Origin: Rhizophagus irregularis
Taxonomy: Eukaryota
Direction of reading: 5' to 3'
Assembly (NCBI RefSeq): GCF_026210795.1
Contig: NC_089430.1
Location: 930,001 to 994,000, forward strand
DNA length: 64,000 nt
Numbering within the stretch: the first letter of the stretch is position 1; each line of letters begins with the position of its first letter. Below, in pieces: positions 9,424 to 64,000 of the stretch. The notes under the pieces were generated by a model that worked only from the letters and a program-made list of their open reading frames with translations, did not search any database and had not been told where the DNA came from. Made by a program: the position numbers and the translations under genes.

Positions 9424-9434
9424 GGTTCCTCCTC

Positions 9435-14733: not shown

Positions 14734-14735
14734 CT

Positions 14736-22310: not shown

Positions 22311-22447
22311 GAAACCAACATTTTTGAAGATTACTCTCGACCGAATTATGATTTTCCAAACAATATTAATGAAAATCTGCAAAATATTGAAGATTGGATA
22401 ATTGTGTTTATTTTGAGGTATCAAACTAGATTTCGGCTAGCAGATAC

Positions 22448-26694: not shown

Positions 26695-26973
26695 CACTGG
26701 TAAAAAAATGGTCTATTCTACACATATCCTACACATATCTTACATATATCGGGTACTCAAAATGTAGAAAATCATACACAAATAATACACATATCATACA
26801 CATATCGGGTACTTATATATATAGTATACTTATCAGGTACCTGATATATGTATGATATATATATTAGTACCCGATATGTGTATGATATGTGTATTATTTG
26901 TGTATGATTTTCTACATTTTAAGTACCCAATATATGTAAGATATGTGTAGGATAAATCATTTTTTTACTAGTG
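26695..26973. mobile_element. 279-bp CACTG MITE, copy 3
   Basis: 3-bp TSD aaa; its removal restores ...TYECENGKRVRG. Confidence 0.92.
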
Positions 26974-33100: not shown

Positions 33101-33754
33101 TATCAAATTTTCAATTATACAAAATAAATATTTATATTTAAGTGATGTATTAAATATGTTTTTAATGAAAAGAAAACAATATATAATGAATTTATTTAAT
33201 ATTCTTTTTAATAAATTTTTTTATAATTTTTATATTTTTATTTTTTAATTTTTCTTAAAAAACTTTTTAACTTTTAACTTTTCTTAATAAACTTTTTAAT
33301 TTTTTTGTTTTCTTTTATCAAGTTATTTTCAATTATACAAAATAATTATCAATTTTACTAATGGCTAGCATTTTCCAATATCTGTATTTAAGCGATATAT
33401 TAATATTTTTAATGAAGAGAAAGCAATATATGATAATATAAAACTTATATAATATTCTTTTTAATAAATTTTTAATAATTTTTATATTTTTTTTAATAAA
33501 CTTTTTTTATAAACTTTTTAATTTTTCTTAATAAACATTTTAATTTTTTTTAATAAGCTTTTTAATTTTTTTTAATTTTTTTTGTTGATTTTTTTATCAA
33601 ATTTTCAATTATACAAAATAATTATTACTGATTTTATTAATAACTCAATATTTGTATTTAAGTGATATATTAAACATATTTTTAATGAAAAGAAAACAAT
33701 ATATAATAAACTTATTTAATATTCTTTTTAATAAAATTTTTTATAATTTTTATA

Positions 33755-35596: not shown

Positions 35597-35904
35597 ATTT
35601 TTATATTTTTATTTTTTAATTTTTCTTAAAAAACTTTTTTTTCTTTTAACTTTTCTTAATAAATTTTTTTCAATTATACAAAATGATTATCAATTTTACT
35701 AATGGCTAGCATTTTCCAATATTTGTATTTAAACGATATATTAATGTTTTTAATAAAGAGAAAGCAATATATGATAAAACTTATATAATATTCTTTTAAA
35801 TAATTTTTTTATTTTTTTAATAAATTATAATAAACTTTTTTTATAAACTTTTTAATTTTTCTTAATGAACATTTTAATTTTTTTTTTTATCAAATTTTCA
35901 ATTA

Positions 35905-36059
35905 CAATCAACCCTTGTTATAACAAACCCTAGATTCTAGACCTCAACTTCACTATAAGGCTATAGTGAAGATTTTAAGAGATTTAATTGGTTAATTTAT
36001 TATAACAAGGGAAATTTATTATAGTTGTCTGAAAAATTCACTATATCAAGGGTTGACTG
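35905..36059. mobile_element. 155-bp Tc1/mariner (pogo-like) MITE
   Basis: TIR caatcaacccttg / caagggttgactg flanked by TA on both sides. Confidence 0.8.
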
Positions 36060-39000: not shown

Positions 39001-41879
39001 CTATTTCATATGAATGATGTATTCTCTTCCAAATTTTTTTTCTTTACAAACTTATTATCACAGAGAGTTTCGTTTACTGCTCCAGATTATTTTCTCTACA
39101 AATATTATATCGTTCAGAATATAACCAGGGCTGTGATTCTGCGCAAAACGAAATAATAGGGGTCTAATTATTCTATCCAACCTTCGTATAAGTTTGGAGT
39201 TATACGAAAATGAGGAATATGGTTATTAAGGGTATCGAAAAGAGGTTAAGAGGAACTTCGCATACAAAGTGTAGAAAAAATAGAATCCTGCTAAAGAATA
39301 TAATATCACAGGCCTAGACTATTAACTGGGAATGAGAAGCTTATAACAGAAAGTCATGAAGACTAAAGTTCTGGCTTTCAATCAATCCCATTGAATTTAA
39401 ATATATGTTAACGTTCGTTCTGCGCTTTGTTTGTACTCCTTGTATTCATAAAATTCCACTCATCAAAACGAATTTTGAATTAAATAGCTTCTGTGTTCTA
39501 TTATTATACAGATTAGTTCGCTTGTTTTGATTACATCCATAGTAGACGTATTAGGAAGGCTTGAAACCTACAGGAGCATATTTCATTAATAAATGTCATT
39601 TTTGTTCATATTCACATAAAAATATATTGCAGAAGTACCTTATTCCTCTACACGTAACTCTTTATCTTTTGCTCGATTTATTAGTAATGTTCCGCTATGA
39701 ATCTTTCAAATCTACTTAATATAGTTTAGAGTAATCTTTTACACATATTTTCATTGTTAGAAACAAAACTCGTAACTCTGTTTTTTTAACTTTTTTTCAG
39801 TGCATGTTTTGAAACTGACTCCTTAATCAGAATAATCATCAATTAAAACTGCTGATCCATTATTTTATTGATAATTAGATATGCGCAGTATAAATCTAGA
39901 AGAGTTACACAAAGTTTAATAATTGAGGGCCCTTGTGCGATATATTACGGAAATAAGTTTTAGCTCTTGGTGTCTTACCCTTCTAGATCAAAAAATGTTT
40001 CCTTATGGTATCTAGCATTAATGTGTCTCGACCCTACCGATCATAGTCTGGGTGTAGAAAGACTTTTCTTACACAAAAATATCTCAAACACAAACGATGG
40101 TACTGTGTTGAACAAATCGTGTCCAAACTGTCCAATACATATTATGATGTAAATAATACGTAACAGAAATTTAGTAAAGGAAAAATTCATATGTTATATC
40201 TGATCATGTGACACCATGAATATTTGTTCAGAGTATCAGTCAGAGACTGCCCAAAGGGCACTTGATAACAAGGTCACATGGTGATCTAACATTTTCTCGT
40301 CTACTCTTCAGAGGAACGAAGCTCATCCCTTATTGATTCAAGATTTTTCACACACGGTTAACACAGGTCGAAGGGGCAATATTGTCCAAAATTCAAAAAA
40401 TGCAAATTCCACATTTTTCTGGAAAATGGTGGGAAATTGTGGAAAATGCTGCATTACGCTGAGCAATTTTTTGGAATAGCATTGTTACAACATTGTCCGA
40501 TTTAGCAAATTTTATGAAAATTTGGGAAAATGCTACATTATATCTCAAATGTAACATTTCGTAACATTTCATAACATTGTTATAACATTGTCATTAAAAT
40601 CAAATTTTGCTTTTTTTTTGTCAAATGTTCCAATTTTCTTGCAAATGGTGCATTTTTATGAAAATTCCACATTTTATTTCAAATGTAATAACATTTCATA
40701 AAATTGTTATAACATTGTCAATTAAAATTAAATTTTGCTTTTTTTTTGTCAAATGTTCCAATTTTCTTGCAAATGGTGCATTTTTATGAAAATGCCACAT
40801 TTTATCTTCAATGTGATATCATTGTAACAACATTTCATAAAATTGTTGTAACATTGTCAATTAAAATCAAATTTTGTCAAATATTCCGATTTTCTGGCAA
40901 ATGGTGCATTTTTTTTATGAAAATTCTATATTTTTTGTCAAATGTTGCATATTTTCAGCAAATTTTATGTTTTTTTGGTCAAATGTTTCATTTTCGTCAG
41001 AATGTTAAAATGTTACATTTTTTTTTGAAAAATGCTCAATAATATGGCATTACACTGGAAAATGTAGCATTTCACCAAATTACACTAAAAAGCATCACAA
41101 TTATCACATTTTTTGGAAAATTCCACATTACACTAAAAAATGTAGCAATATACTAGATTATGTAGCATTACACTAAAAAATACCGCAATTACACTAGACG
41201 ATGTAGCATTATACTAAAAAGTACCACAATTATCATATTTTTTAGAAAATTTCGCGTTATACTGGAAAATGTAACATTATGCTAGAAAATGCAAAATTGC
41301 ACTAAAAAACGCGGAATTGCACTAAAAAACACAAAAAAAATACTACAATTACACAGGATAACGTAGCATTACACTTAATTACATTAGATAATTTTTTATT
41401 TATTTGTAAAATTACAGACATTATTAAATTTATAATATTTATATTCTAACGTATTATTTAACATTAAATTCACATTGTTAATATTAACAATGTATCAACA
41501 CGATGTGTTGTTTAATTTATATATACGAAACCTTATTACTGAAGACTCCCTCTTTTTGTCACTATAAACAGGCGGAGGGAGCAGCAATGGCTCTCCCCCT
41601 ATAGGTACTTTATGGCCTCTACCTGTTTACAGAGAAGGGGCTTTTCGTAAAGTTATTAGATAGATATATATATATGTATATATATAAGTATATATATACA
41701 TCTATCAAAAATTATAATAAAAAAAAAAAATTATTTCGGGGAAAAAGCCCCTATTTATATAAATTTTATATCACGTGCATCACGTGATATTACTTAATAA
41801 TTACCGCAGCTTAGCTGCGATATAACGAAAAAAAAAATTAAGCTTTTTTTAGCAAAAGCTTAATTTTTTTCTCTTTTTT

Positions 41880-44540
41880 TTACGGCCTTAACCTTTACTT
41901 CCCTTCTTTCGCCATTTCACCTTCCCTGTTTCTCTCACCTTCCCCTTCCCCCTTTCCCTTTCGTTCTCCCCCTCCCTTTTCGTTCCATTTCCCTTTCCTT
42001 TTCGTTCTCCCCTCCCTTTTCGTTCCATTTCCCTTTCCCTTTCGTTCTTTTCGTTCCATTTCCTTTCCCCTTTCCTTTTTGTTTCCCCCTCCCTTTTTGT
42101 TTCATTTTCCCCTTTCCCCTTTTGTTCTTCCTCCCTTTTCGTCCTTTTCCCTTTCGTTTTCCCCTTTCCCTTTTCGTTCTTCTTTTTCCCTTCCCTTCCC
42201 CTTTTACTGTAAATTAGAAATATTGGAAATTTCCTTTCAGAAAAACAAAAGGGTAAGTTTCGAATTGTTCGATTCGAAACTTTAATATTTTTTTTATTTT
42301 TTAGGAAACGTTTCTAACGTTTCCTATATCTTCTTTATTTGGAATTACATGAGGTAAATTTTATTACACAAAAATTTACAAGAATTCATTGCAAGTTTTT
42401 AATTTTATTTTATTTTATCAAAGGCATTGGATAATATAGCAATAGCAGATAGAGATTTACAACAATGAGAATTAATTGATGCTCTTTTTTTTATAGGTCT
42501 TTTCGCCGTATTCAACTTGGAAAAATGAAACGGTAAGTTTCGAGGCGTTCGCCTCGAAACTTTTTTTAAAAAAATCTTTTATTAGGAAACATTACTAATG
42601 TTTCCAATAATTCTTTTTTTTTGTAGGTTTTTTTGGCGTACTCGACTTAGAAAACGAAATGGTAAGTTTCGAGGTGTTCGCCTCGAAACTTTTTTTCTAA
42701 ATTCTTTTTAGGAAACATACTGACGTTTCCTTTCTTTTTTTTTTATAGATTTTTCGGTGGTTTGACTTTGGGAAACGAGAAACCGAAAGGTAAGTTTCGA
42801 AGCATTTCGCTTCGAAACTTTTTTTTAAAAAAAAAATTTTTTAATTTTTTGTAAGGAAACGTTTCTAAGTTTCCTTTTCCTTTTTCTTTTTGTAGGAACG
42901 CCGGACGTTTGGATAATGTATTTCGAAACGAACGGTAAGTTTTGCAACGAATCGTTGTGAAACTTAATTAATTATTTTTTTTTTTTATTAAAAGAAACGA
43001 TTAACTAACGTTTCTTTCTTTTACTTTTGTAGGTTCCGGACGTTTGGATAATAAATTTTGAAACGAGCCGGTAAGTTTCGCAACATGTGTTGCGAAACTT
43101 TATTTTATTAATTTTTTTTTAAAGAAACGATACTAACATTTCTTTTTTTTTCCTTTTTTTAGATTCCGGACGTTTGGATGATGAATTTCGAAACGAACCG
43201 GTAAGTTTCGCAACATTGTGTTGCGAAACTTTATTTTATTAATTTTTTTTTTAAAGAAACGATACTAACGTTTCTTTTTTCCTTTTTTAGATTCCGGACG
43301 TTTGGATGATGAATTTCAAAATGAACTGGTAAGTTTCGCAACATTGTGTTGCGAAACTTTATTTTATTAATTTTTTTTTTTAAAGAAACGATACTAACGT
43401 TTCTTTTTTCCTTTTTTTAGATTCCGGACGTTTGGATGATGGAATTCGAAACGAACTGGTAAGTTTCGCAACATTGTGTTGCGAAACTTTATTTTTATTT
43501 ATTTTTTTTAAGAAACGTTAACTAATGTTTCTTTTCTTATTTTTGTAGGAACGCCGGACGAAATTTTTGGGCGAAAGGTAATATTTTCGTTTTTTTTGTT
43601 AATAATTTTTTTCTACGAAACGTTAACTAACGTTTCAGTTTTTTTTTATAGATCCATGGCTTCGCCTCCAGGACGAGATTTCGAAGGTAAATATTTACCT
43701 TCGAATCAATTTTGTTTTTTTTTTGTTTAACGAAACGTTAGTAAATGTTTACTAACGTTTCGTTTATCTTTATTTTTGTAGTTTATTTTCCGGTCGCCTT
43801 CTGTACGGAAGAATTTTGAAGGTAAATATAAGAACCTTCGAAGTTTATTTGTTTTATTTACAATGAAATGTTTACTAACTTTCGGTTTTCATTTTTTAGG
43901 TTCCAGGATGCCGTTTCAACATTTCAAAGGTATTAGAACTTCGAAATTATTGGATTTTTGTTATGTAACGAAACATTGTTTAAAGTTTCGTTTATTTATT
44001 TATTTTTTTTGTAGGTTAAAGGAACGGAAAAATGAAAGGGAAAGGTGAAGACGAAAGGGGAAAGAGAAAGGGGAAAGAGAAAGGGAAAACCGAAATGGAG
44101 TGGAACATTTCGAAGGTATACTTCGAAATGTTTGTTATACCTTCGAAATGTTTTTTTTTTTTAGGTTTGGACATACCGGAATTCAATATTTTGAAGGTAT
44201 ATTATACTTCGAAATATCTTTTATTTTGATTTTTTTCAACGAAACATATATTAACGTTTCGTTTTTTTTCTTTTTTTAGGTTCGGCGGTCCTTGTATGGA
44301 ATTTAACATTTCAAAGGTATATAACTTCGAAATGTTTTTTATTTTGATTTTTTTCAACGAAACGTATATTAATGTTTCGTTTTTTTTCTTTTTTAAGTTT
44401 TCACCAGCTTTTACTTCGGCACTGGACATTTGATACATGAATGAATTAGAGGTGTGGATTATCCATAGATCATCGGATATCTGATGAATATAGATCAATA
44501 TAGATTCTCATCGTTAAATAATAATTGTGCATTTGTTAAT
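41880..44540 (+). ncRNA. Putative multi-intron non-coding transcript (about 17 introns, micro-exons mostly 29-41 nt)
   Basis: Donors at 42253, 42354, 42533, 42662, 42790, 42935, 43071, 43201, 43329, 43459, 43578, 43687, 43822, 43930, 44116, 44197 and 44317, mostly followed by CTAAC/CTGAC/TTAAC, poly-T and YAG; transcription not shown. Confidence 0.6.
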
Positions 44541-45246
44541 AAATAATATTGTAATAAATTATGTAAAATTATTAAATCAGTGTTTTAAATTGTCACAGCG
44601 CTTATACTAAATTGTTTAAAATTATTACTAAATTTCACACAATTGTCCAAAATTATTGCAAAATTTCACTAAATTGTCTCCGAAAATGTTGCATTTTATA
44701 CCGTTTACACTCAATTGTCCAAAATCGGTAAAACATTTTCACTCAATTGTCCGAAATTATCCTAAATTTCACTAAATTATTCAAAGATTTAACTAACATT
44801 TACCGAAAATATGCAAAATTCACCACAATTTTCCACAATTTGCATTACGTTTGCACAACATTGCTAAAAATTCGCCTAAATTTTCAACAATTTACATAAC
44901 ATTACTAAAAATACACTACAATTTACCACCATTTGCATTACGTTTGCATAAAATTACTAAAAATTCACTATAATTCACCACAATTTGCATTACGTTTACT
45001 AAAAATTTGACTAAATTTACCACAATTTGCATTATGTTTACATAAAATTACTAAAAATTTGACTAAATTTACTACAATTCGTATTACGTTTACATAAAAT
45101 TACTAAAAATTTGACTAAATTTACCACAATTCGTATTACGTTTACATAAAATTACTAAAAATTTGACTAAATTTACCACAATTCGTATTACGTTTATATA
45201 AAATTACTAAAAATTTGACTAAATTTACTACAATTTGCATTACGTT

Positions 45247-45525
45247 CACTGGTAAAAAAATGATTTATCCTACATATATCTTACACATATTGGGTACTCA
45301 AAATGTAGAAAATCATACACAAATAATACACATATCATACACATATCGGGTACTAATATATATATCATACATATATCAGGTACCTGATAGGTATACTATA
45401 TATATAAGTACCCGATATGTGTATGATATGTGTATTATTTGTGTATGATTTTCTACATTTTGAGTACCTGATATATGTAAGATATGTGTAGGATATGTGT
45501 AGGATAGACCATTTTTTTACCAGTG
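45247..45525. mobile_element. 279-bp CACTG MITE, copy 4
   Basis: 3-bp TSD gtt inside the 43-bp repeat of element D. Confidence 0.92.
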
Positions 45526-47442
45526 GTTTACATAAAATTACTAAAAATTTGCCTAAAATTCACCTCAATTTACATTACGTTTGCATAAAATTACTAAAAA
45601 TTTAACTAAATTCACCACAATTTGCACTTCGTTTGCATATCATTACTAAAAATTTGCCTAAAATTTCCCACAATTTAATGATAATTTACTGAAAAATTTC
45701 TCAACATTTGAATTAGGAATTCTGTAGGAATTCCGCCATTTTGACAAAATTTGCCAAATTGTAAGTCCTCCATTATCCCAAAATTGTAACACAATTTACC
45801 CCAATTTACTGGGATAATTCTCAATTTGCCAGAAAAATTCCAGGCAAATTTTGCGACAATGACATCTGTTTGACCTGTGTAACGGAATTCCACTTAATGA
45901 GTTACCTTGTTCTTTCCCTTCGGATTGTAGTTCAGACATATTTAGTTACAAAGCGTAATGTATGCGGTTGTTAAAAAATGAATATACTCTCTGTTCGGCG
46001 ACTATAATCTATAAGTGGCAAGAAATCTCGATGACCGTCCGTTAAATTTTCTTGGTATAAAGATATTCAACTAATGACACAAAGTACCAAATTGTTATAC
46101 ACAGACAGAACACACGATAAACGGAAAGTAGTAGACTATTTATTCGTAGGCTCTGCTAGATGCAATAAAAATTGTGCTTGTGACCCTATTAACATAATTA
46201 AATTCTGGAGAAAATCTCTCCTGTTGATTTTAGTGCTAATCTATTTATAAAGTATAAAACGGTGACATGTCACATAGTTGCATACTGCTTATGGCATGTT
46301 ACTTCAGAATGATGGTGTGTATACAAAAAATACAACAAAATCAAACAAAGAAAAACCATTAGTATGAAATCAAGTTGCGCAACGTGTTCCATATGGGACT
46401 GATTTCTTCTCGTAGATTTGATACTTCTTGTCATAGAAGTTTTGTCCTTTATAATTTCCTTCGCTTAACTCACGCTTTAGCGCCTTACAGGGGAGCGTGG
46501 TCTGACAAATCCATCCTGCCTTTTGTTTTGCATAGGTGTAGTGTCAGTCCTTCTCATTATAGATTTGTAATACAGTCTCGTGTTTTTTATAGACTTCTGG
46601 TCGTTCAAGTTACAAATTTGTGAGGATAGTGATAAAAACTCGTGAAATTTAGAATCTTAATCGCTAATATGCTAACTGTGTTATATCACGCAATTGTGGA
46701 CACGTTTTTCGTATCCATGCGAGCTAGAAATGATCTAACATGCGGCTATCAACAATGATGCACAAAGATATATCGAAGATATTAATCGATAACACTGCAG
46801 GTTCCTTTGTGTGTTAATTCCTTCAATGAGCTAAACTAGAACAAGAATTCTCAGCTTTTTTTGGAAACAATGATGACATGAGATAAAAATATCCTTGGTT
46901 ATTCATCCGTAACTCAAAACTTCAAACGAATAAAAAGCAAACTGATGTTACATTTGGGCTTAATTCAACTGCATTTATGGTCATTGACGGCAGTAAGTGA
47001 TTCTTTACTAAGCTTATACGGGATCCCGTTTACTAGTAAGAACCCACCAGCTAAGTGAGAGGATGTATGAGTCATTACTTTTCAGTAACGATGACAAAAA
47101 TAATACTACATATATTATACTATACAATAGTTCCATATTAGTTACTATTCCTCGGTAACGACAGAAACATTTTATACAATACCATTACACGGTATGCGAT
47201 GCAGGGTCTACTTGGGTTATTACTTTTCACTACATAATATTCTATACAAGTTATCTCAATAGTTACTTCCTCGGTAATAATAGACTGGAGGTATTACTAC
47301 CTTCGTAATGAAAAATATACAGATATACCGTTGCATAATATATCGGTGCTATCCGTGTTCTGCATAAGTTTTACTCATCAATAACGATATGGAAATTGTT
47401 ACTACATAACAAGTAATGTTCCACACAATGGATACGTTAGTT

Positions 47443-49713
47443 TAGGGATGGTAAATTAACCGTTAATTAACTGTTAATTAACCCAATTATAATTTCTGGT
47501 CTATTATAACAAATTTTTATAATTTTTATAATTTATTTAATTAAACTTATATTTTTATTTTATATTTATCAAAATTTATTTATTATTCAGTTGCTAAATC
47601 CGTAATATTTAATTCTAACCCGAATATTCTATCATCATCATCATTATTGTTATCGTTACCAGTATTATTATTATTATTTATATCATTATTGTTATTATCA
47701 TTACGCCGATCATGTATTAATTTTCTTTTTAACCCCTTTTCGTACAACTGAAGATTTCCGTAAATATAAACCAACTTCTTAACACGTTCATTTTGCAATC
47801 GATTACAGATTTTATTATTAATAAACCCAAACGTAGAAAAATTTCTTTCAGCGGCGGCAGATGACGTTAGAATTGAAAGAATCTTAATAGCTAGTTGTTG
47901 AAGGCTACTATTTGGCCAAGATTGCCACCATACAGACGGACTAAGGTTAGTAGATGATAACCAAATCGTTTTATTATCATATGGTGAATTTTTTTGACGA
48001 AATTTTACTAATTCTGTAAACATAATCACAGATTCCTCTTGACCGAACCTTTTACTTGTGAATTCTGTGAATTCTCTATATCTCGTTGCCTCTATATCAG
48101 TATTTTTGCTTTCTTCTAAAAAACATGGATCTAACATATAAGCAGCCATCATAACAGGATGGTATGTATAATCCCACCGTTTTTGAACAAGTTGTTGAAT
48201 ATTGTTGGAAAAATTACAAGAGATTTCACTAACTCAATGCATTAATTTTTTGAAGTGAAAATAAACAGTTGAAAGAGTAGATGTGTCTGATTCAAACAAT
48301 TTTAACGCTATAACTATTGGCTCTAAAAATTTTATAATTGTGTCCAACATATCCCAAAAATTTTCTGATAATACAAAATTTCTTACTGTATTATTTATTT
48401 TTTTACAGATATCAGGATCCATTAATGTTTGTTCAAGAGCAGTTTTTGATTTTTGAAGTGACTGAAAGCAGCTAAGATGTGATCCCCATCGTGTAAGTAC
48501 TGGTAAAACCAACGCAATCTCTTTATTATAATTTTCACCTTGAATACGTTTTAATTTTGCTGCTGCTTGTACATGAGACTTAAAATAATTTACTATCATT
48601 TTAGAATTTTCAACTATGGGTTTAATTTCATTAATCTTTAAAACATCCCCAATTAAAAGATTAATAACATGAGAGTTACACCCAAGACAAACAACATTGG
48701 AATATTTTTCCTCAATTCGTCTCCATGCTGATTTCATTACACTAGCTGTATCCATAATAACAGCTGAAAATTTTTGAACACCAATAGCTTCTATTTGTTG
48801 AATAATTTCATTTAAAATCCATTCTCCTGTATGGGATTCTTCACCTGAAAATGTAGCATTAAAAAAAACTGGTTTAGGAGTACAAATGATAAAATTTTGT
48901 ACTGATTCTTGATTAATATTAGACCAACCATCAGAAACCATATAAAGAGTATTTGCTTTGGAAATTTGTTCATCAGTTTGTAATTTTACTTCATCGTAAA
49001 CATCATTTAATAAATCTCCAGCAAGTTTTCTCCTATTTGGCAACTTGAAGGATGGCCGAAGACATTTAAAAAATTGAATGACAAGCGGATTTTCAACAAA
49101 GGCAAATGGTACTCCAGCTGAAAATAATGCTTGTGCTAGTTGAAATTCAAGGTCGTCTTGTTCTTCTTCGCTTATACGATCAACGAAATTCTCAATCTTA
49201 GATGTTTTAGTTATTTTAATTCGTTTTACAGGTATATTTGTATGAGTAGTATTTGGAGTAATAGTTGGAGTGTGAATAGTGCTAGTTGTGGAACCTTGTA
49301 AATTAATATTTTTTTTAGACTTTGCATTATCCGGTGCTCCTAGACATTCTTTATCAAGATGATTTTGCATTCGTGCAGGAACAGCTCTATTCAAAACTTT
49401 AGAACAATAATTACATTGTACAGTAGGATGGGAGTTGTTTTTATTACTTTCTGTTTGGTTTTGTGTAATAATAGTCCAATGTTTCCAAACAGCACCTTTT
49501 TTTTTAGTCATTGTTAAATTGAAAAATAAAAAAAATTATTGAAAAAAAGATCGATAAAAATCAGAAAATCGGTCACGTGACTGTGATCACTTCTTTTAAT
49601 TGGCTAATTTATAATTAACCAAATTAACCGTTAATTAACCAAATTTGCTTAATTATAATTAACCGTTAATTAACCGCAGTTAATTAACCATGGTTAATTA
49701 ACCCCCATCCCTA
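47443..49713 (-). mobile_element. hAT DNA transposon
   Basis: TIR tagggatgg / ccatcccta; 8-bp TSD cgttagtt; subterminal taattaacc repeats. Confidence 0.95.
47583..49511 (-). pseudogene. hAT transposase (BED finger, DUF659-like core, hAT dimerisation domain) with one in-frame TGA at 48234-48236
   Basis: VWKHW...CNYC...H...C; SDGWSN; CNSHVINL; TRWGS; WW...SSAAAERNFS; the 425-aa and 189-aa ORFs are in frame. Confidence 0.93.
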
Positions 49714-50197
49714 CGTTAGTTACTATTCCTTGGTAACGATGCAAAATAATACATAGGATATCCTTAATTCCGCACGTATCCATTCCGCATGAAATAATAT
49801 TGTTTGGTAATGATTACAAATATTCTGTAATTATCACTAAATATTATCCGCTGTAATAGTTACTACTTTTATCAACGATTGTTATATAATACTGTCACAA
49901 TGTGTCTCGTCTTCATCTACGAAAGTTATTGCAATGATAGAATGCGACTGCAATTTACTATATGACAGATAAACCCTCATCACTATGGATCCTTACATAA
50001 AAATATGAACGACCTGGTCGTGAATGCTAGTTAATATAGTAAATAGATAGTAAATGGATAGAAGTAGAGCAAATAGGGCTTTTTCTCCTGACTGATTAAA
50101 TGGTAACTATATTTTGTATGTGCATTTTCGGGCTTTTTGGGTATTTCCTAAATACTAATGTTTTTAAAATTGAAGTCAGGAACCTTATTATAAATCA

Positions 50198-52348: not shown

Positions 52349-55300
52349 CACTGGTCGAATGAAGGGCTACCGGGTAAATTTCATATACCCGATAGCCCTA
52401 TTATATGTTTTCGATTTTAACCTGAATGGCAGCTGATCGATCCACCCGATTTGTGACCGGTTCTCGGCGCAGATCAGGTATAAGTCATGTGACTTTCAGG
52501 TTAGAACATAACGGTAAAGTGCTATATGAATATCGGGAGAATTTCAGCAATCCGATATTTCTCCGAACTATTTATAATATTAGATGTATATTTGCTACAT
52601 CGAAACCCGAAACTTATTATTTATTCATTTATATATACTATATATTATTCATTTATTTATTTATTTAACATAATAACATATATATATATTTATTTTATTT
52701 ATTATATTTTTAAAAATTATTTTTAAAAATTCGTTAATTTATCCTATTCTATCTATCTACATTATGTTGTTAATGGTTTGGAATATTATTCCAGTTGGTT
52801 CGATTCCAACAAACAACTATTTTTCCCAAAGTTTTTATGCCAACTCTTCCGAACTATTGCCTACTAATACCAAACGAATTAAGCAGAAGATGGATATTAG
52901 ATTGTGGTGGATTAGGTTGATTTTGACTTGGTAAAATTGTGAGTGAAATATTATTTCGTTCTCTATAAAAAAAAAGAACGTTTAGTAAACGTTCTTAACG
53001 AAAAATATTAAAAAAAATAAGTTCTGGTACCTTGTGTCAATTTCATCTTGAGCGAATTACCTACAAGAAAACGAAAAAAGTAACGTTAAAAATGTTACAA
53101 AAAAAAATAGAAAAACCCTTCTATTTACCTTTCGTCCAAAGTCCAGTTCGTAATCTTGTCTGGCGTTCCTACTAAAAAAGAAAGAAACGTTAGTACGTTT
53201 CTTTAAAACAATTAAACACCATACACCGCATTATCCCATATACCTAAGTCCAGGTTCTCCCAAATTCCTAGGAGTCCGGTAATCTAAAAAACAAAAAAAG
53301 AAACGTTAATACGTTTCTTTAACATAATTAAACACCAACGCTATACACTTCCCCATATACTTTACCGGGTTCTTCCAAATTCCTAGGAGTCCGGTAACCT
53401 AAAAAAATGAAAAAAAGAAACGTTAATACGTTTCTTTAATACAATTAACGCCATACACTCCTCCCATATATTTTACCGGATTCTTCCAAGTCCGGTAACC
53501 TAAGAAAATGAAAAAAGAAACGTTAGTACGTTTCTTTAACACAATCAAACGTCATACGCCACCCATATATTATACCGAGACTTCCAAGTTCCTAGGAGTC
53601 CGGTAACCTAAAAAAATTGAAAAAAAGAACGTTCGATACGTTTCTTTAACAGCCCCCATATATCTAAATCCGATTTATTGAAAAAAAATATTTAGTTTCG
53701 ACAAAAAAACTTACCGAATTTAAATACCGAGCTCAACAAATCCTACAAAAAAAGAAAAAGAAACGTTAAAACGTTTCTTAATAAAAATAAAGTTTCGTAA
53801 CGATTTTCGTTACGAAACTTACCATTTCGACCTTAGAGTACCGGAGCGGCGGAGCCTACAGATTCTACAAAAAAAATAATAAGAACGTTAGAAACGTTCT
53901 TTGAAAAATAAAAAAAATATTGAAAGTTTGAAACTTACCCTCTCTTAGGCCTTAGCATCCCAGTCCGGTATAAAAGTCGAAGGGAGCCTACAAAAATAAA
54001 TAAAGAAACATTAGTAACGTTTCTTTAAAAAAAAAATAAAAAAAAGAATCGAAGTTTCAAAACGAAACTTCGAAACCTAACCGAAATCCAATATCCAGAG
54101 AGTATCTACAAAAAAAGAAGAAACGTTAATATAACGTTTCTTACAAAAAAAAGAATAAAAAAAGATTGTTTCGCAACGTTTAAACTTACCGTTTCGAAAC
54201 ACCGAGCCGAACACTTGAACCTACAAAAAAGAGAGAAACGTTAATATAACGTTTCTCAAAGAAAAAAATTTTTTAAGTTTCGTAACGTAACTAAACGTCG
54301 CGAAACTCACCGTCATTTCGAATTTCACAAGGCCGAAATACTTGAACCTACAAAAAAAGAGAGAAACGTTAATATAACGTTTCTTACAAAAAAATAAATA
54401 AAAAATAAGTTTCGCGTTGTGAAACTTACCATTCGAGGTTTGCCATTTCGAAGCTCCCCACTTGAACCTACAAAAAAAGAGAGAAACGTCAGAATAACGT
54501 TTCTCAAACTCTCAAAGAAAAAAATTGTAAGTTTCGCAACGCGCTGCGAAACTTACCGTTCGTTTCGTTGAAAAATGAAAAAAGATATTTTGAAGTATAC
54601 TTGAAGTATATCTTCGAAATGTCGAATTTAATTTCGTCCGTCTAAGGAGCCGCCCAAAAGAAACCGAACCTAAAAGAAAAAAAACGAAACGTTAATAAAC
54701 GTTTCGTTGAAAAAAAAACAAAAAAAAATATATTTCGAAGTATACTTCAAGTATACCTTCGAAATGTCGAGTAAGGAGCCGCCCAAAGAAGTCGAACCTA
54801 AAAAAGCAAAAAAAACGAAGCGTTAATAAACGTTTCGTTGAAAAAAAAAACCCAAAAAGAAAGACATTTTGAAGTATATATACCTTCAAAATGTCTTATT
54901 GATTTCCGTCCGTCCAAGAAGCCAAGAAGCCGCCCAAAGAAGCCGAACCTAAAAGAAAAGAAACGAAACGTTAATAAACGTTTCGTTAGTCGAAAAACAA
55001 AAAAATAATTATTTCGAAGTATACTCGAAGTATACCTTCGAAATATCGAGTTCCGTCTCCAAGGAGCTGCCCAGCCGAACCTAAAAAAGCAAAAAAAACG
55101 AAGCGTTAATAAACGTTTCGCTAGTCGAAAAAATAAAAAAATAAATTATTTCGAAGAAGTATACCTTCGAAATGTCAAATTCCGAACCTATACCTTCGGC
55201 GTTCTGGACCTAAAAAATAAAAAAGAATATTAGTGCTAACGTTCATTAAAACAAATAAAAAAAAATTTTTTGCTTACTCCGGAAGACTGGAACTAATTTA

Positions 55301-55867
55301 GATACCGGTATATGTCTTCGGCTTCCTTAAAGTCTCCAAGAGTCCGGCATTTCCTTCAAAAGAAAAGAAGTCCGGAGACTACTAAAGTGAAACTTTTTAA
55401 TCCGTTTCTGCATGTTGCAGATTATATTCCGAACGTTGGACGAGCTTGCCAGAAGTTAGAAATTTGATTTCGAGTTAAATATTTGGTTCTTCAAAAGGTG
55501 TGATAAAAATTTATTTATTTAAAGTATTGTAAGAAAAAAGTTAAAAAAAAATTAACTTTAAAGTGTAAAAAAAAAAAGTTTATCAATTAAAAAAAAGATC
55601 GAAGATTTTTGTGGGAATAGAAATAATTACATGCCGTAAATTATTCCAATGACCTATCAGACTACTGATAGGTATAATAAAATTTTCTGATATTTTAATG
55701 ATATGTCTTTAAAAAATCAGATTTTTTTCATAAAATATTATTAAACATTTCAGATTACCGATACTTGTAAATGTTTAATATTGCCTATCATGCCATATCG
55801 GGTTTCTGATTATTTCCTGATATTTGACCAATACGTTATTACCCGATATTTCATCATTTGACCAGTG
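52349..55867. mobile_element. Non-autonomous CACTA element E (CACTG termini) with intron-array cargo
   Basis: TIR cactggtcgaatga / tcatttgaccagtg; TSD tgc at 52346-52348 and 55868-55870. Confidence 0.92.
52700..55500 (-). ncRNA. Second putative multi-intron non-coding transcript (about 19 introns); ends approximate
   Basis: On the plus strand, recurring cctac/cctaa-A-run-gaaacgtta..cgtttc...cttacc/tatacc, i.e. minus-strand GT...branch...YAG units every 110-150 bp. Confidence 0.6.
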
Positions 55868-56760: not shown

Positions 56761-57693
56761 TTTATGTCCCCGCCTGCTTTCGAAATCTATCTATAACAGG
56801 TAGCATTGCTATGTTGGAAGCGGACGAGGAAAAAAAAATAATTATGTCTGATGCCCGTGGAAGGCGTAAATTGACAGCTTTCTTCTAGTTCAACAGAACT
56901 GTTACCGAAATATAGTTGCTGAGAAACTGCTAGGAACATGATGTGAAATGAAATTGACCACGGCAATACAAGCGAGCATTTGTTTTAGCCTATCGATTTG
57001 ATAGAATACGCAGTGTATTGTTGAGTCCAAGGAGGATCAAAACAGACCATTGACAGCACTAAATACGCAAACCTTGTGTCTATTAAGAACTCATAGTACG
57101 GTGGTGATCAGTCCTCCATTATTTCATGGAATGGGCCAAAGGCCCCTCGTTCCTCGAAAAATCATTTCCCTTGGAAGGTCCATACATGGACTGGAGATTA
57201 ATTGGTATACAAGTCGTCAGGCTGGATGTGGGAGGTGCAAGCACCACCCACCTCCAGGTCTACGACCCGTCGCAGTACCTATATGGCCCCTACGGGGCTC
57301 AGGAATCCCCTATATCTGTCACCATCTGTCATTAACATCTGTCATATAACAATATACTAAAAAAGGATAAAATAAGGGAAAAGAGAGGAAAATACAATAG
57401 AATCAGAGAGGTATGACAGATATGACGGATATGACAGATGTTTCAGAAAAATTGGGAGAGGATATCTCCAGAAAAAAGTTTTGATTTTACCCCCAGATCT
57501 GTCATTCTGTCATAGTTCTGGGATTCAGTCTATTCATCTGTCGGAAGCAGTGAGATAGCAAACCAGGTAAGTTAGCAGGTAAGCCCCTAGAAGGTTTATA
57601 GAGCCAGTAAGACCAACCCTGTCCCGCCCCCATCAGAAAAAATAAGTAATTGAACAATGGGTATAATATAAGTAACCTATAAGGACAGATAAC

Positions 57694-58062
57694 ATGTATA
57701 CCCCGCACGCAGTATCAGTAATTCCCGAACTTGTAGGCCATATCCCGGAACTCATTCCAAGTAGCAATTTTGGGTCACATCTTTTAGAAGTCAGCCCAAT
57801 CTGGAAAGCCGAAGCTGAACGAGTACTCTGGAAGCGGCATAAAAAAGCCAAGGAGGCATACGACAGGGCAGTAGAAAAGAAGGAAAAAGCAAATGATGCT
57901 CTTGGTCGATCGGAGGAGGAGGATAATAGAAATCGTGACCTCCGTGAACTTGAATGGATGGCGTATCAAAAGGCTTGTAAAGAGTTAACGGACACTAGAA
58001 AAGAGCTAACTATAGTAAAAGGAGCTCTTGAGCGGTTTGGATTTCAGATATATGTAGTTTGA
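57694..58062 (+). CDS. 122-aa helical protein of the virus-like element
   Basis: Homologous to 59943-60380 (EAYDRAVEKKEKA.DALG...YQK.CKELTD.RKE...ALER.GF). Confidence 0.7.
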   Translation: MYTPHAVSVIPELVGHIPELIPSSNFGSHLLEVSPIWKAEAERVLWKRHKKAKEAYDRAVEKKEKANDALGRSEEEDNRNRDLRELEWMAYQKACKELTDTRKELTIVKGALERFGFQIYVV

Positions 58063-58280
58063 AAAAGGGGAAGGGAAGATTTAGAGCAGTCGTAAAGGTT
58101 CGTGGTTTATAATTTTTTTTTACCCCTAGAAGATAACCAGATATGACCGGAGGACCACAGAACCGCAGGACTATAGGACTACAGGAGGTAACCAAGTAGG
58201 AGTGCAGATCTTTGGAAAAATTATTCGGCAATTGAAGATTAGGTAACTATAAATTAGTACTTGATTTGATAGAACAAAAA

Positions 58281-59366
58281 ATGACTGCCCAAACTAGCAC
58301 TCAAGCTCAAGTTATCCCCAAGTTCAGTGAACAAAAGAAGGCTTTTAGTATTGATGAGCTTAAACGGCTCATTAACGCTGCAAAGAATATAAGGGATCTC
58401 AATCAAGCTAAAGGTTATCTTTGCAGTTACTTTATCCCCTGCTCCAACCCGCATGGAGTCTTCAAGTGGCGATCAGAAATCAAAAACCTTGAGCACATCC
58501 CTGATAAAAATATTAATAAACTTATCCGTCCAATTACCAAAGTCTTTTACACACAATCTGAACAGGGTCCTTCACAAAAGGTTGAATTTAATATCAACAA
58601 ATGGTTTATGATCGAATATAGTACTGTATGTGTAGCTACCTGTGACCCTCAAAAATTCCGTATCTTTAAACTAGGTGGCCAACTTTATCTCAATATCTTT
58701 CCAGGATTCCTCCATATCCTGCGTCCGATATCTACTTTTGAATCTACAACCCACCTCGCGGTTAAATTTATCTTCTCTCACATTCAGGATATCTGGTGTT
58801 CAGGCGATTGGAATCTTACTGAGTATATCATAAAGTGGTTGGCCGGTGTGGCAGCTGGAAGGAAAATGTATTCGATTCTCTACCTGAAATCTGGACAGGG
58901 TTGGGGTAAGAGTATTATAACAGATTTCATTCAACGTAGTGTCTTAGGTACTCAACTTGTTTATAAGACCAGCGATCTTCAAACGATTCTTGGAAGTTTC
59001 AATGGGCAATTACAAGGTAAGGTTCTTCTCCTTCTCGAGAAAATGCCTACAGAAAAAAGCCAGTGGAATAATCTGTATCGATCGTTAAAGGATAAGGTAA
59101 CAGGTGACATAATGGAAATCCATGAAAAATACAAGACGCCAACACATTACAAAAACTTTATATCCACCATTGTACTCACTAATGAAAATGCTCTCAGAGT
59201 GGAGAATGACGATAGGCGCACAGTGTTCTTGGATGTGTCACCATCCCGCAAGGGAGACCTCAACTACTTTAAGAAACTCAGTGACGCTATGAAATACCTA
59301 GGCGCCAGTGAGGCATTCTATGCTTACTTGAGAGCCATTGCAGATGCTTACCCAGACTTCAATGGG
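58281..59366 (+). pseudogene. D5-like SF3 helicase (DUF5906/NrS-1-like), truncated by insertion
   Basis: LNIFPGF, IWCSGD...YIIKWLA, Walker A SGQGWGKS, FNGQLQGKVLLLLE, LTN...DDRR. Confidence 0.85.
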
Positions 59367-59942
59367 AGTCGTCGGGCTGGATGTGGGAGGTGCAAGCACC
59401 ACCCACCTCCGGGTCTACGACCCGTCGCAGTACCTATATCCCCCCTACGGGGGATCAGGAATCCCCCATATATACTACTACCATGGCCACAGTGGCCATG
59501 GCTGGTCACACTACTTTCCAACTCCTTTTTTTTATCCATTTTTTCTTATATATAAAACTACTATGACCACTATGACCACTATGACCAGACTACTAAAAAG
59601 TGGATAAAAACGCGAATAAAGCTGAAATCAGACAGAATATCCGGTCATAGTACTGGCCACAGTTCAAAAAACTTATGATAATACTATGGCCACCTTAGTT
59701 AGCCCCTCAGGCTCCAAAACCCGATTTAAGCTATGACCACCCTTTATCTACTTACCTGAGACACCGAACTATGCCACCGAACTATGACCGCCGAACTATG
59801 ACCACCGAACTATGACCGCCGAACTATGACCACCCTTTATCTACATACCTGGGACACCAAACTATGACCGCCGAACTATGACCACTTTCCCCGTCAGAAA
59901 AAATAAGTAATTGAACAATGGGTATACCATAAGTAATATACA

Positions 59943-60380
59943 ATGATGAACTTACACGCAGCCACTTATCTTGCCGAAGACCTCGGACTTGATCTTGTAG
60001 ACATCTATGGAATCCGTAAATGGATCCAAATGCGGGCATCGCCCCTCAACGACCCGGATATAGTAGCAGAAATAGTCAGAAACCTTCCGGCCAAAGAATT
60101 CGGAAAGCACCTCAAGATAAACAGACTCTGGTACAACTGTTGTAAAGCCGAGTTGTGGAAGCGATATGAGAAAGCCGAGGAGGCATACGACAGGGCAGTA
60201 GAAAAGAAGGAAAAAGCGGGGGATGCTCTTGGTCAATCATTTGAGGAAGAGGGTATTGGAAATCGTGAACTTCATGAGCTTAATTGGAAGGAGTATCAAA
60301 AGACTTGTAAAGAGTTAACGGACGCTAGAAAAGAGCAAATAATGGTAAGGTGGGCTCTTGAGCGGTGTGGATTTCATTAG
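59943..60380 (+). CDS. 145-aa helical protein of the virus-like element
   Basis: Intact ORF; homologue of 57694-58062. Confidence 0.7.
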   Translation: MMNLHAATYLAEDLGLDLVDIYGIRKWIQMRASPLNDPDIVAEIVRNLPAKEFGKHLKINRLWYNCCKAELWKRYEKAEEAYDRAVEKKEKAGDALGQSFEEEGIGNRELHELNWKEYQKTCKELTDARKEQIMVRWALERCGFH

Positions 60381-60613
60381 ATATACGTGGATTGAAAAGG
60401 GGAAGGGAAGATTTAGAGCAGTCGTAAAGGTTCGTGGTTTATAGTTTTTTTTTACCCCTAGAAGATAACCAGATATAACCGGAGGATCGCAGAACCGCAG
60501 GACCATAGGACTACAGGAGGGTAAATTGGTAGGAGTGCAGATCTTTGGAAAAAATATTCGGCAATTGAAGATTAGGTAACTATAAATTAGTACTCGATTT
60601 GATAGAACAAAAA

Positions 60614-63112
60614 ATGGCCGCTCAAGTTTCAGCAATCTTTAACCCCAACAACCGTTTCTTCTACGATGACCTTCTTAAAAAGTGTATAGGTACACACACA
60701 AAAGAAAGCATCAATTCAGCAATCTCAGCTTCTGTGGCTTTCATCACCACGAAGTCCGGCATGTGGATCAGAAAAAAGAAGGCTTATAATGGAAGCATAT
60801 ACTTCGAGTTTGCTGCAGATCTCAAGGAAATTTCTACTAAGCACAAGGTAAGTATTTGGTCAGATGCAGGAGAAGATGATGGTATGACCACATCCATCAA
60901 GTTAAAGGACCTTCTTATCCAAGCCTCAGTCACAAAGATCTGTTATACAGATGTTAATTTCATGCCTTATCCCCCAAATGCACTAAAGTATAATCCTGAA
61001 TTCTTCAATCTCTTTCTAGGTTTCAGGGCTCAACCCGCTGAGCACATCAAACCGAACCTAGTTAATCCAATCATTCGACATGTTCATGAGGTATGGTGTG
61101 CAGAGGACAAGCAGTTAACCACGTACATCCTCAACTGGCTCGCATTTCTGGTTCAAAATCCTGACAAAAAACCCAGTACAGCAATTATTATGCGCAGTCC
61201 CCCCAGATGTGGTAAGAATATCTTAACCGATTTTATCGGAGAACATATTCTTGGTCGTGAAAACTTTCTCTCCACTACCCGTCTTGAAGATGTAATGGGA
61301 AGGTTCAATGCAGCTGTTCGTGCCAAAAAACTCATTATCCTCAATGAATGTGATATGACAGGAAAGGAATGGCATGGAGCAAATAACCGACTTAAGAGTT
61401 TAATCACTGAGCTTTACATCTCTATCAAGGAAAAGGGAATAGATGTGAAGGTTATTGATGACTTTGCTGGCTACATGATCCTGAGTAATCATGCTATGCC
61501 AATCCGCATAGAAATGGGAGATGAAAGATTTGTAGCTCTTAACGTCTCAGCCAAATATAAGGGCAATCGAGAATACTTCAGTTCTCTAGTAAAAGTATTA
61601 GAAAACACAGATACAGCCAGTTCCTTCATGTCCTATTTACTTAGCCGAGACTTAACTAGCTTCAATCCCCGATCTATTCCTGATACTCAAATGAAACAGG
61701 AGCTAATCGAAGCAAGTATTCCAAATCCCCAGCGTTTCATACAATATTACCTTGAAATGATGTGGCCCGACAATTGTGATACACTTGAAATTCCTTGTAC
61801 AAATTTCTATAGCACTTACCAGAATTGGTGCAGTGAGAAGGGCGAAAACAAAACACTTAGTGATAATAAGTTTGGTATGGAGATTAAGCAATTCATTCCT
61901 AAAACTCGCCCAAGACGTTCAGGTGCTAGAATAAACTATTACATACTAGATAAAGCAAAAATTGCAAAGAATTTTAGTAGAGTAATCCAGGAGACACAAG
62001 ACATACAGGAAGCACAGGTAGATCAAGAGGAAGTGGAGCCAGTTGTTGAGAAACCTGCTGAGGAAAAACCCGCTCCTGTTGAGAAGAAGCCTACTGAAGA
62101 GACCAAAAAGACTCCACCACCAGTACCACTTAAGCCCGATTGCTTGAAGGTAAAACCCGCACCTGTCATCAAAGAGGATCCTATTCCTGAGGAATCTCCA
62201 GCTCCTATAGAATCAGATACTGATGAACCTATAGATAGCTTCTCGAACTGTTATCTATCTGATGAGGAACCTGATCAAGAAAATGAGCCGCCTGCTGAGG
62301 AACCTGCATTTAAAGCTGATGATGACTATGACGTTTTAGATGACTTGCTATCTGACTCAGATTTTACAACTGTGAACCCAGCTCCTGAACAACAACCCGA
62401 GTCTCCCGCAGAATTTTCTGCATCTGTCACTAAGCCTGACCCAGAACCGGCTCCTGAAAAACAATACGAGTCTCCCGCAGAATTTTCTGCATCTGTCACT
62501 AAGCCTGACCCAGAACCGGCTCCTGAAGAACAACCTATCCCAGAACACGACACAGAACTAGAAGTTGACTGGGACCCTGAACCAAAGGAAGGTACTCGAG
62601 CACACTGGGCTTGGCATGAAAGGCACCGATGGGATCGTAAGCCATGGGTCAAGAATTCAAAGGACCAGGTCTTCAATGATCTCTACAATACAGGTAAGGA
62701 TTTATGGGCTAAGTACCAAGACGTGTCAGACGACTATGACTGGGAAATACTCGCGTTTGAAGTAGAGGAATGTCCCACAACACGTATTGAGGACGAGTAC
62801 CAGTACTACCTTAGGGAGGTAGTAGACCGCTTCAAGGACTGGATAGAATATAATGGGTACTTACCTAAAACACCTAGCCGTAAAGAACTCACAGATCTAA
62901 TAAGAGCATATAAGGAGGATCATGATGCCGAGATTATCCCTACCACCTCCGGTTATGAAACTATGAAGATGAATAAGGGTAAAGCACGAGAGATCCCTGA
63001 GGAACGTCCAAAAACTGATATGGAACGTGAATGGGAAGCCGCCAATGGAATTGTCGACGACTGGGATGAAGAGGATCTTGATCGTGTATGCAGCAAGATT
63101 GACTCCTTTTAA
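60614..63112 (+). CDS. D5-like SF3 helicase (DUF5906/NrS-1-like) with winged-helix region and long acidic/Pro-rich tail, 832 aa
   Basis: FNLFLGF, VWCAED...YILNWLA, Walker A SPPRCGKN, Walker B LIILNE, LSNH...DERF, YSTYQNWC...NKFG; 69-bp tandem duplication at about 62399-62530. Confidence 0.88.
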   Translation: MAAQVSAIFNPNNRFFYDDLLKKCIGTHTKESINSAISASVAFITTKSGMWIRKKKAYNGSIYFEFAADLKEISTKHKVSIWSDAGEDDGMTTSIKLKDLLIQASVTKICYTDVNFMPYPPNALKYNPEFFNLFLGFRAQPAEHIKPNLVNPIIRHVHEVWCAEDKQLTTYILNWLAFLVQNPDKKPSTAIIMRSPPRCGKNILTDFIGEHILGRENFLSTTRLEDVMGRFNAAVRAKKLIILNECDMTGKEWHGANNRLKSLITELYISIKEKGIDVKVIDDFAGYMILSNHAMPIRIEMGDERFVALNVSAKYKGNREYFSSLVKVLENTDTASSFMSYLLSRDLTSFNPRSIPDTQMKQELIEASIPNPQRFIQYYLEMMWPDNCDTLEIPCTNFYSTYQNWCSEKGENKTLSDNKFGMEIKQFIPKTRPRRSGARINYYILDKAKIAKNFSRVIQETQDIQEAQVDQEEVEPVVEKPAEEKPAPVEKKPTEETKKTPPPVPLKPDCLKVKPAPVIKEDPIPEESPAPIESDTDEPIDSFSNCYLSDEEPDQENEPPAEEPAFKADDDYDVLDDLLSDSDFTTVNPAPEQQPESPAEFSASVTKPDPEPAPEKQYESPAEFSASVTKPDPEPAPEEQPIPEHDTELEVDWDPEPKEGTRAHWAWHERHRWDRKPWVKNSKDQVFNDLYNTGKDLWAKYQDVSDDYDWEILAFEVEECPTTRIEDEYQYYLREVVDRFKDWIEYNGYLPKTPSRKELTDLIRAYKEDHDAEIIPTTSGYETMKMNKGKAREIPEERPKTDMEREWEAANGIVDDWDEEDLDRVCSKIDSF

Positions 63113-63195
63113 TAAGATAAGCACTTCTTAGTTATCTTATATTTTTTGTATAAATAACCTATATTACAACTGAACACAATTCATAAATACATCAA

Positions 63196-64000
63196 ATGGT
63201 TTATTCAGAGATTGTCCGTGCTTTACCTACAAGACCGGATATCAAAGAATTACAGTATTCAGGCGCAAGATTTTCCAGAGGAGCAATAGCAAGACTTGGA
63301 CAGCGACTCCAATCCCGGTATCCGACACATAAATTTCAGATTCTGCTCCCCTATGAAGACTGGAAACCCGGTGGATGGACATCAGGAAACCAACCAGCCA
63401 GCCTCTTCTCACTCTTGGACCACTACGACGAAGCACAACTACCGGATGACGCAGACCCTGATTATTTTGAACGATTCATAATTTATGTGAGAGATGCCCC
63501 ACCGGTTGCAGATGGTTGCAACGGGGAGCTAAATGATTGCCTGTATGAATGCCTAAAATATATCTACGGCACATTCTCTAAAATGCCAAAGTCAATCGAA
63601 AAGCCCGAGTATATCAAAAAGGCATTAGGTCTCAATCGTGATGCTCCAGTTCCAGTCTCATATATGGATAAGGTTGAACAACTTGCAGGAAGCCTTGCAC
63701 TTAATATTGTAGGGGATTCCACTCGAATTTCCAAGAGCAAATCTGACAGACGTGCAACACTTATCCTGTCTGAAGGCCACTACTCTCTTGCACTGAATCC
63801 CGGAAGACTCCACCCTAGCAAATTAGATAGAAAACAAAAGTCTCCCTTTGTTTATCGTGAAGATGGGGTTAATAATGTAGTAACAATATACAATGGTAAG
63901 ACAGTTAAGTCTCTTACAGTTGGACAGTTTCAGAAAGGTAAGAACTCTGATAGTTACTCCTTCATCCCTATCGAGAAGAATTGTAAAACTGGAATATATG
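63196..64000 (+). CDS. 5' part of a long ORF not in the supplied track; NDC...GHY cysteine-protease-like motif, possibly the N-terminus of a protein-primed DNA polymerase B
   Basis: Open for 268 codons to the window end: MVYSEIVRALPTRP...DGCNGELNDCLYECL...LILSEGHYSL...; polymerase motifs not within the window. Confidence 0.6.
   Translation, partial: MVYSEIVRALPTRPDIKELQYSGARFSRGAIARLGQRLQSRYPTHKFQILLPYEDWKPGGWTSGNQPASLFSLLDHYDEAQLPDDADPDYFERFIIYVRDAPPVADGCNGELNDCLYECLKYIYGTFSKMPKSIEKPEYIKKALGLNRDAPVPVSYMDKVEQLAGSLALNIVGDSTRISKSKSDRRATLILSEGHYSLALNPGRLHPSKLDRKQKSPFVYREDGVNNVVTIYNGKTVKSLTVGQFQKGKNSDSYSFIPIEKNCKTGIY

Follow-up and report, generated by a model that had tools for sequence, protein, structure and literature searches.

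A tandem array of hairpin-bearing intron-like units in a non-autonomous CACTA-type transposon of Rhizophagus irregularis, and related arrays in other mobile elements

The stretch of DNA analyzed here (64,000 nucleotides, referred to below as the window) represents a stack of mobile elements with a G+C content of about 30%, and R. irregularis proteins are among the named best matches of one of its transposases, at 84% identity. The element of interest is bounded by CACTGG termini at positions 52349 and 55867, which match in 15 of 20 letters, and is flanked on both sides by the target duplication TGC (3 bp). As no open reading frame (ORF) of at least 100 amino acids with a Pfam match and no transposase were found inside it, this element is a non-autonomous CACTA/CMC-type DNA transposon; an autonomous partner with the same CACTG ends was not encountered within the 64-kb window. 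Its minus strand harbors a tandem series of intron-like units, here termed array 2, whose subdivisions are listed in Table 1 together with a second, homologous series (array 1) and the host element of the latter.

Table 1. Features of the two arrays and of the transposons that carry them (positions within the window)
Feature	Position	Strand	Basis
CACTG-ended non-autonomous CACTA/CMC-type element, 3519 bp, TGC duplication	52349..55867		Inverted repeats at the ends, flanking TGC
Array 2: 19 intron-like units with 18 non-coding micro-exons between them	52963..55305	-	Splice signals, covariance model
Four type-B units: exon end pairs with intron start, donor GT in predicted loop	54670..55164	-	77.5% over 249 nt to end of array 1
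113-nt fused "exon": dead-donor (54612) type-B unit and type-A exon end, joined at CGAAACG	54557..54669	-	Sequence comparison
Seven mostly type-A units: hairpin at or just after donor, plus branch-point hairpin	53743..54556	-	69% over 648 nt to array 1
Eight units with donor hairpin weak or absent, branch-point hairpin mostly kept	52963..53714	-	Folding, splice signals
Putative first-exon segment, conserved in another array locus	55361..55454	-	79.8% over 99 nt to locus L005
tRNA-like half (T-arm, B-box-like loop), antisense to array 2, in putative last exon	52763..52821	+	94.9% over 59 nt to L037 and L073, partly L099
Array 1: homologous array, 16 covariance-model matches, type A then type B	42253..44397	+	Model and alignment
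CACAG-ended host of array 1, TAA duplication	40362..45879		Ends equal those of transposase-bearing element 17405 to about 26222

A preliminary description of this DNA, made from the letters alone, had reported about 19 minus-strand units at this position, and this count was reproduced, with 19 donors (from 55305 to 53030) and 19 acceptors (the first at 55210, the last at 52963) being located; the unit given as an example in that description lies at 54556-54429 on the minus strand, exactly as written. The order and spacing of signals are those of spliceosomal (U2-type) introns, with a G/GT donor in 19/19 units, a T tract followed by a TAG acceptor in 19/19 and YTRAY, which we take to be the branch-point consensus, in 17/19, positioned 20 to 25 nt from the AG. 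The donor at 54081 is of the weaker GTTAG type, while position 54612 represents a would-be 20th donor from which the G has been lost. The intron-like parts measure 68 to 107 nt and the intervening exons 23 to 113 nt. When joined, these exons contain stop codons in all three frames, and a protein-coding repeat gene was rejected on this basis and on that of the exon lengths of the wider survey described below, which are spread over the frames.

Along the direction of the array, the donor style changes from type B (exon-paired) to type A (intron-internal) and then to a block in which a strong donor hairpin is absent. Similarity is higher between adjacent exons (mean local score, 21) than between exons that lie further apart (12), in agreement with the local tandem amplification that the preliminary description had proposed. 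The type-A exon end within the 113-nt fused exon is identical to positions 42925-42934 of array 1, and this exon is presumed to mark a recombination joint between a type-B and a type-A module. Two units of the mostly type-A block yielded fold z-scores of -6.5 and -5.5, the putative first-exon segment displayed no significant fold (z-score, -0.3), and the fold z-score of the tRNA-like half reached only -1.9, with no tRNA being called at that position by ARAGORN.

The remainder of the window is occupied by further mobile elements. In the region 16434-28700, another CACTA transposase gene is interrupted by a CACAG-ended element (17405 to about 26222, the right tip being lost) that carries a Transposase_21 gene together with a spliced gene in divergent orientation. 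Four copies of a palindromic MITE with CACTG ends, 279 bp in length, are present (20579-20856, 22448-22726, 26695-26973, and 45247-45525; about 97 to 98% alike), all of which sit in other transposons. An LTR retroelement at 8547-15842, whose 573-bp repeats are 99.7% identical, is inserted in an array of 87- to 90-bp tandem repeats, and a hAT-like transposase gene (DUF659) with one internal stop is located on the minus strand at 47400-49720. The plus-strand block 57400-64000, of higher G+C content, encompasses two tandem D5-like primase/helicase ORFs (DUF5906, Pox_D5) along with duplicated upstream segments and looks like a Polinton- or virus-like element. The element at 31994-38254, which possesses terminal inverted repeats of about 520 bp (98%) and a 6-bp flank duplication, contains on the plus strand of 34730-35170 six acceptor-like sites called by regular expression, mostly without donors; this segment gave local matches of 71 to 76%, which low complexity may inflate, to the acceptor-only loci L073, L062, and L031 and may be a third array that has decayed, housed in a further backbone.

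The transposon that hosts array 1 belongs to a different family from that of array 2, as the preliminary description had held, given that the two have CACAG and CACTG ends, respectively, which align only at their tips. The Transposase_21 element at 17405 to about 26222 provides an autonomous partner for the ends of array 1's host, in which array 1 occupies the place and orientation of the second, spliced gene of that element. A pyrimidine-rich repeat precedes array 1 (41940-42200) and a complementary purine-rich exon lies inside it (44015-44115), a similar purine-rich exon being joined to a type-B donor in 29 reads of RNA run X21. That array 2 might be a recent copy of array 1, which the preliminary description had named as an outcome to be checked, was rejected, since the best-aligning blocks (Table 1), exons included, reach only 69 to 78%. 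The two arrays had also been regarded as independent, and in this respect the earlier interpretation has to be revised. With splice flanks trimmed, the exon likeness between the arrays (286) exceeds both the mean (236) and the maximum (270) of shuffled sequences, the host termini have 10 of their first 11 letters in common, and array labels intermix on a tree of 31 units, with 6 label changes and 0/200 bootstrap trees separating the arrays, albeit with weak support, such that the strongly supported branches alone are still compatible with one split. An independent origin was discarded on the basis of the exon likeness and the intermixed tree. Judged from these comparisons, the two arrays show common descent and module shuffling rather than convergence, and the shuffling may have proceeded through recombination at the shared GAAAC motif.

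The predicted hairpins of the units are short, with stems of about 9 to 14 bp. All 30 (overlapping) matches to the branch-hairpin pattern fall within the two arrays and none was obtained in 100 shuffles, so that the array cannot be ascribed to chance. A covariance model was derived from 14 array-1 units, as the preliminary description had suggested; it retrieved 17/19 units of array 2 at an E value of ≤0.024, with one more at an E value of 0.7 and one missed, and detected nothing in the window beyond the two arrays at an E value of ≤0.05; the few reverse-strand matches inside the arrays reflect palindromes. Both donor-hairpin styles and the branch hairpin recur in a different order, as had been noted, with type B preceding type A in array 2 and following it in array 1. 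A similar frequency of the same hairpins in ordinary introns was, besides recent copying, the other outcome that the preliminary description had named as speaking against its reading, and neither of the two occurred. The last 48 nt fold at -6 kcal/mol or better in 16/19 units of array 2 and 12/14 of array 1 but in 0/16 ordinary introns, a small and unvalidated control of by-eye calls from mobile-element genes rather than host housekeeping genes (11 from the window and 5 from three other loci, two further introns having been dropped because the motifs failed to place them). Hairpins at the donor end occur in 5/16 ordinary introns, compared with 13/19 units of array 2 (one donor of which was placed two bases off in this count) and 13/14 of array 1.

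Comparable arrays were recovered beyond the window. A pattern scan covering 17 of 64 parts of the metagenome data returned at least 120 loci, and among the 124 loci examined, at least 52 further arrays of two or more same-strand units were identified; by-eye inspection of the other 68 loci yielded about 11 array pieces, the rest resembling bacterial terminators or chance matches, and no lone sense copy of a unit in a gene. The covariance model produced 227 matches at an E value of ≤0.001 in the 62 loci searched. When these arrays and the two of the window, 54 in all, were grouped at 90% identity, 45 clusters resulted, which is an upper bound, as fragments of one family can fall apart. The ends of their backbones are of CACTG, CACAG, and hAT-like types. 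L076 encodes a hAT transposase on the strand opposite to its array, a hAT homologue search yielding 89 matches, one of them to R. irregularis (68% over 42%), and L049 possesses the element end of array 2 (79% over 204 nt) but a different array content. The array points into an opposite-strand gene in L025, L059, and L076 and is likewise opposite in strand to the neighboring gene in L028, whereas in L053 a nearby ORF, apparently outside the element, lies on the array strand. Two scans of viral contigs returned four loci, none of which contained array units, and zero loci, respectively.

Eight of the metagenome loci (L031, L042, L046, L049, L062, L073, L079, and L100) carry acceptor-only arrays beside full units, consisting of 6 to 32 units of 20 to 60 nt (T tract, TAG, and short exon) from which the donor and the branch hairpin have been lost. 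The same eight loci share, on the array strand, a conserved motif that resembles a cloverleaf and contains a T-arm/B-box-like loop, and a fuller tRNA-like sequence lies antisense inside the arrays of L049 and L114; such tRNA-like motifs could be Pol III promoters, insulators, or processing sites. Subterminal repeats of the same GAAAC/GTTTC motif that is found in the hairpins occur at positions 190-400 of L074 and are a possible origin of the hairpin stems.

The extent to which the units have been conserved was evaluated for 121 distinct units from 42 arrays, of which 99 received a donor call and 22 did not. A strong donor is present in 92 of the 121 units, compared with 4.6 in shuffled sequences and 7 on the reverse strand, and donor variants are limited to the spliceosome-type GTAAG, GTGAG, and GCAAG. 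Among the 99 called units, introns span 62 to 100 nt and exon lengths are distributed over the three frames as 35/30/34. Although the scan pattern predetermines part of the branch motif, it leaves the preceding position free, and of 178 instances, 109 have C there and 45 have T. Double changes were observed at 18 of 21 paired positions in a model-fitted alignment, and an alignment-free assessment of the inner donor stems, which vary in sequence while their pairing is kept exactly at the splice signals, scored 100 pairs against a maximum of 69 after swapping. Single stem changes to G-U are about as frequent as those to A-C (21 versus 20, 8 versus 9, and 10 versus 4 in the three comparisons), which gives no sign of wobble selection on an RNA strand, and donor hairpins are missing from several array families. 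Among 115 exon junctions inspected in the loci and in the DNA of the window, a small sample, none was intron-less, and a precise intron loss was thus not observed. The ratio of observed to expected CpG is 2.2 and 2.45 in the arrays, while five other mobile genes of the window have ratios of 0.63 to 1.16, a difference that an escape of the arrays from methylation-driven decay would produce. The preliminary description had argued from the recurrence of the array in a second backbone to a selected architecture. Its conservation is supported, on the evidence of the wider metagenome survey rather than of the array pair, given that many arrays in varied backbones keep their splice signals, that the hairpins covary, and that the exons lack a frame; selection on the splice signals, on the other hand, we infer from their persistence while the exons diverge.

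Reads from four RNA runs, chosen by species label and derived from a different strain, were aligned to positions 52800-55480 at 90% likeness. One polyA run contributed 933 reads, 67% of which continue into other sequence, and the other 1099 reads, 58% of which do so, the proportion of raw reads extending into other loci ranging from 58 to 90%, which indicates that the strain has many related loci. The cassette family is probably transcribed. None of the predicted splice joints is represented among the best-supported 15 of 25 read joints. At position 54544, within the intron that begins at 54556, 16 polyA reads of run X22 and 7 of run X21 share a variant with a contig that crosses the donor unspliced; these reads lean toward retention and against efficient splicing, but both mate strands are represented, short exons are hard to align, and DNA carry-over from many copies is possible. 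C>T and G>A differences are numerous among the copies, which are thus not immune to decay.

Several known systems resemble the arrays in part. snoRNA host genes and mirtrons combine many short frame-less exons with structured introns. The arrays differ from these in the shortness of their stems, in their location inside transposons, and in lacking an Rfam match near threshold, only two matches having been obtained (E values of 0.29 and 0.63), both far below the gathering scores. Non-autonomous CACTA/CMC-EnSpm elements have CAC-starting termini, a 3-bp duplication, no transposase, and internal tandem repeats or captured gene pieces. The host of array 2 conforms to this description in its termini, duplication, repeat cargo, and lack of a transposase, but differs from it in the cargo unit, which combines all the splice signals with hairpins and is also found in hAT-type elements. 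CMC elements are active in R. irregularis (PMC8647823).

The introner-like elements (ILEs) of fungi, as portrayed in PMC3609843, are multi-copy introns with canonical signals, a stable predicted structure, and compensatory changes, and the array units have in common with them the canonical donor, branch, pyrimidine tract, and acceptor as well as the stable structure and compensatory changes. ILEs, however, are acquired one at a time, as almost identical introns in genes that are unrelated to one another (PMC3609843), whereas in the arrays the exon and intron are co-duplicated in tandem and the exons are non-coding. Identity with ILEs was rejected in view of this co-duplication, the lack of the hairpin in the 16 gene introns, the lack of intron-less junctions among the 115 inspected, and the absence of a lone gene copy from the 68 non-array loci viewed by eye. 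PMC3609843 also describes intron duplication within a gene by segmental duplication, of which at most 16 cases per species are given, all in genes. These duplications resemble the arrays in that intron and adjoining exon are duplicated together within a single transcript unit, but the arrays reach up to 19 units per element, are non-coding, and occur in dozens of elements.

Parallels of a functional kind are provided by host pathways. In human cells, introns protect against HUSH silencing even when they are not spliced (PMC8770142), and in Cryptococcus, stalled spliceosomes yield siRNA through SCANR (PMC7763443, also PMC6004069). In both instances, splice signals on mobile-element RNA decide silencing, and the array may work alike, although HUSH and SCANR are host pathways of human and Cryptococcus, respectively, and a dedicated array carried by a transposon has a part in neither. 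Our literature search, which covered main texts and few subscription papers, revealed no account of arrays of this kind, and repeat libraries in supplements may contain unnamed copies; the R. irregularis genome papers PMC10234402 and PMC8647823 do not mention them in their accessible sections, the word "intron" being absent from those of the latter. By this comparison, the cassette fits no known family among those considered.

We consider it quite possible, if short of an even chance, that the DNA transposons of arbuscular mycorrhizal fungi, across several superfamilies, share and swap a dedicated "intron decoy" cassette which loads the spliceosome to set the silencing state. More specifically, we tentatively propose that the array is a spliceosome-baiting, anti-silencing non-coding cassette. 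It is one member of a family of such cassettes in DNA transposons, which expanded as a unit of one exon and one intron was duplicated in tandem and were probably shuffled between transposon families; it is probably transcribed into RNA with strong but hairpin-masked splice signals, which would recruit early parts of the spliceosome while the stems hold back efficient excision, so that the transposon RNA would look intron-rich to surveillance and silencing would be damped. The proposal is favored by splice signals that outlast diverging exons over up to 45 clusters, covarying hairpins, a branch hairpin that is absent from 16 ordinary introns, unspliced polyA reads, high CpG, and the capacity of introns to counter HUSH even when unspliced. 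Against it stand the human origin of this precedent, the equality of G-U and A-C changes, the possible DNA carry-over, the C>T and G>A decay, and the acceptor-only units, and arrays that point into an opposite-strand gene (L025, L059, and L076) fit antisense regulation as well.

The same equality of G-U and A-C changes, the continued amplification of acceptor-only derivatives, and the lack of a predicted splice joint among the best-supported 15 of 25 would all be accommodated by a selfish or neutral minisatellite, in which a captured ancestral intron and exon were amplified by slippage or recombination and then spread, the hairpins being by-products of template-switch repair that are not under selection. 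Similar neighboring exons and the common descent of the arrays also accord with this account, which we nonetheless regard as rather unlikely, given that up to 45 clusters retain the three splice motifs (donor, branch, and acceptor) at their spacing while the exons have become almost unrecognizable, and that differing inner stems stay paired exactly at the splice signals.

A module for self-restraint, in which hairpin-stalled spliceosomes would give rise to small RNAs against the element in a SCANR-like manner, aided by antisense orientation, is in our estimation unlikely. Masked signals, unspliced reads, and the position of the array opposite a neighboring gene in L025, L028, L059, and L076 are consistent with it, as are the generation of siRNA by stalled spliceosomes in Cryptococcus (PMC7763443) and, in R. 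irregularis, the small-RNA loci in unannotated regions near transposable elements reported in PMC8647823. High CpG speaks against long-term silencing, however, a non-autonomous element would presumably gain little by silencing itself, and the neighboring ORF of L053 lies on the same strand, though apparently outside the element.

Two further explanations are improbable. An array acting at the DNA level, in which CpG palindromes and T tracts bind proteins or exclude nucleosomes and the intron-like appearance is inherited but unused, would agree with the Watson-Crick-only covariation, the CpG excess, the GAAAC motifs in the subterminal repeats of L074, and the B-box-like tRNA remnants of several arrays, but a one-strand order of donor, branch, T tract, and TAG with fixed spacing is needless for a DNA site, as is the confinement of donors to spliceosome-type variants. 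An ordinary, efficiently spliced multi-exon lncRNA, the product of which would be the spliced RNA or the excised structured introns, is equally doubtful, as the canonical signals, host-like intron lengths, and conserved first- and last-exon segments are outweighed by the missing splice joints among those best supported, the unspliced reads at the donor, the lack of an Rfam family near threshold, and the absence of precise intron losses at the 115 junctions.

Unclassified repeats constitute 24% of the R. irregularis genome (PMC8647823), and the cassette may explain part of them. Even if the neutral minisatellite account were true, the arrays would represent an undescribed repeat family that is able to mislead gene annotation. 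The loci identified here also offer hundreds of natural variants with which to probe the effects of hairpins at the donor and branch point on spliceosome loading. Splicing is linked to the recognition of self and non-self RNA in humans, worms, and Cryptococcus, and the cases known to us are all forms of host surveillance. The baiting cassette, if true, would be the first transposon cargo to consist of splice signals and to be retained for this function, and such a transposon-side cassette would show that mobile elements exploit splicing-based RNA recognition.
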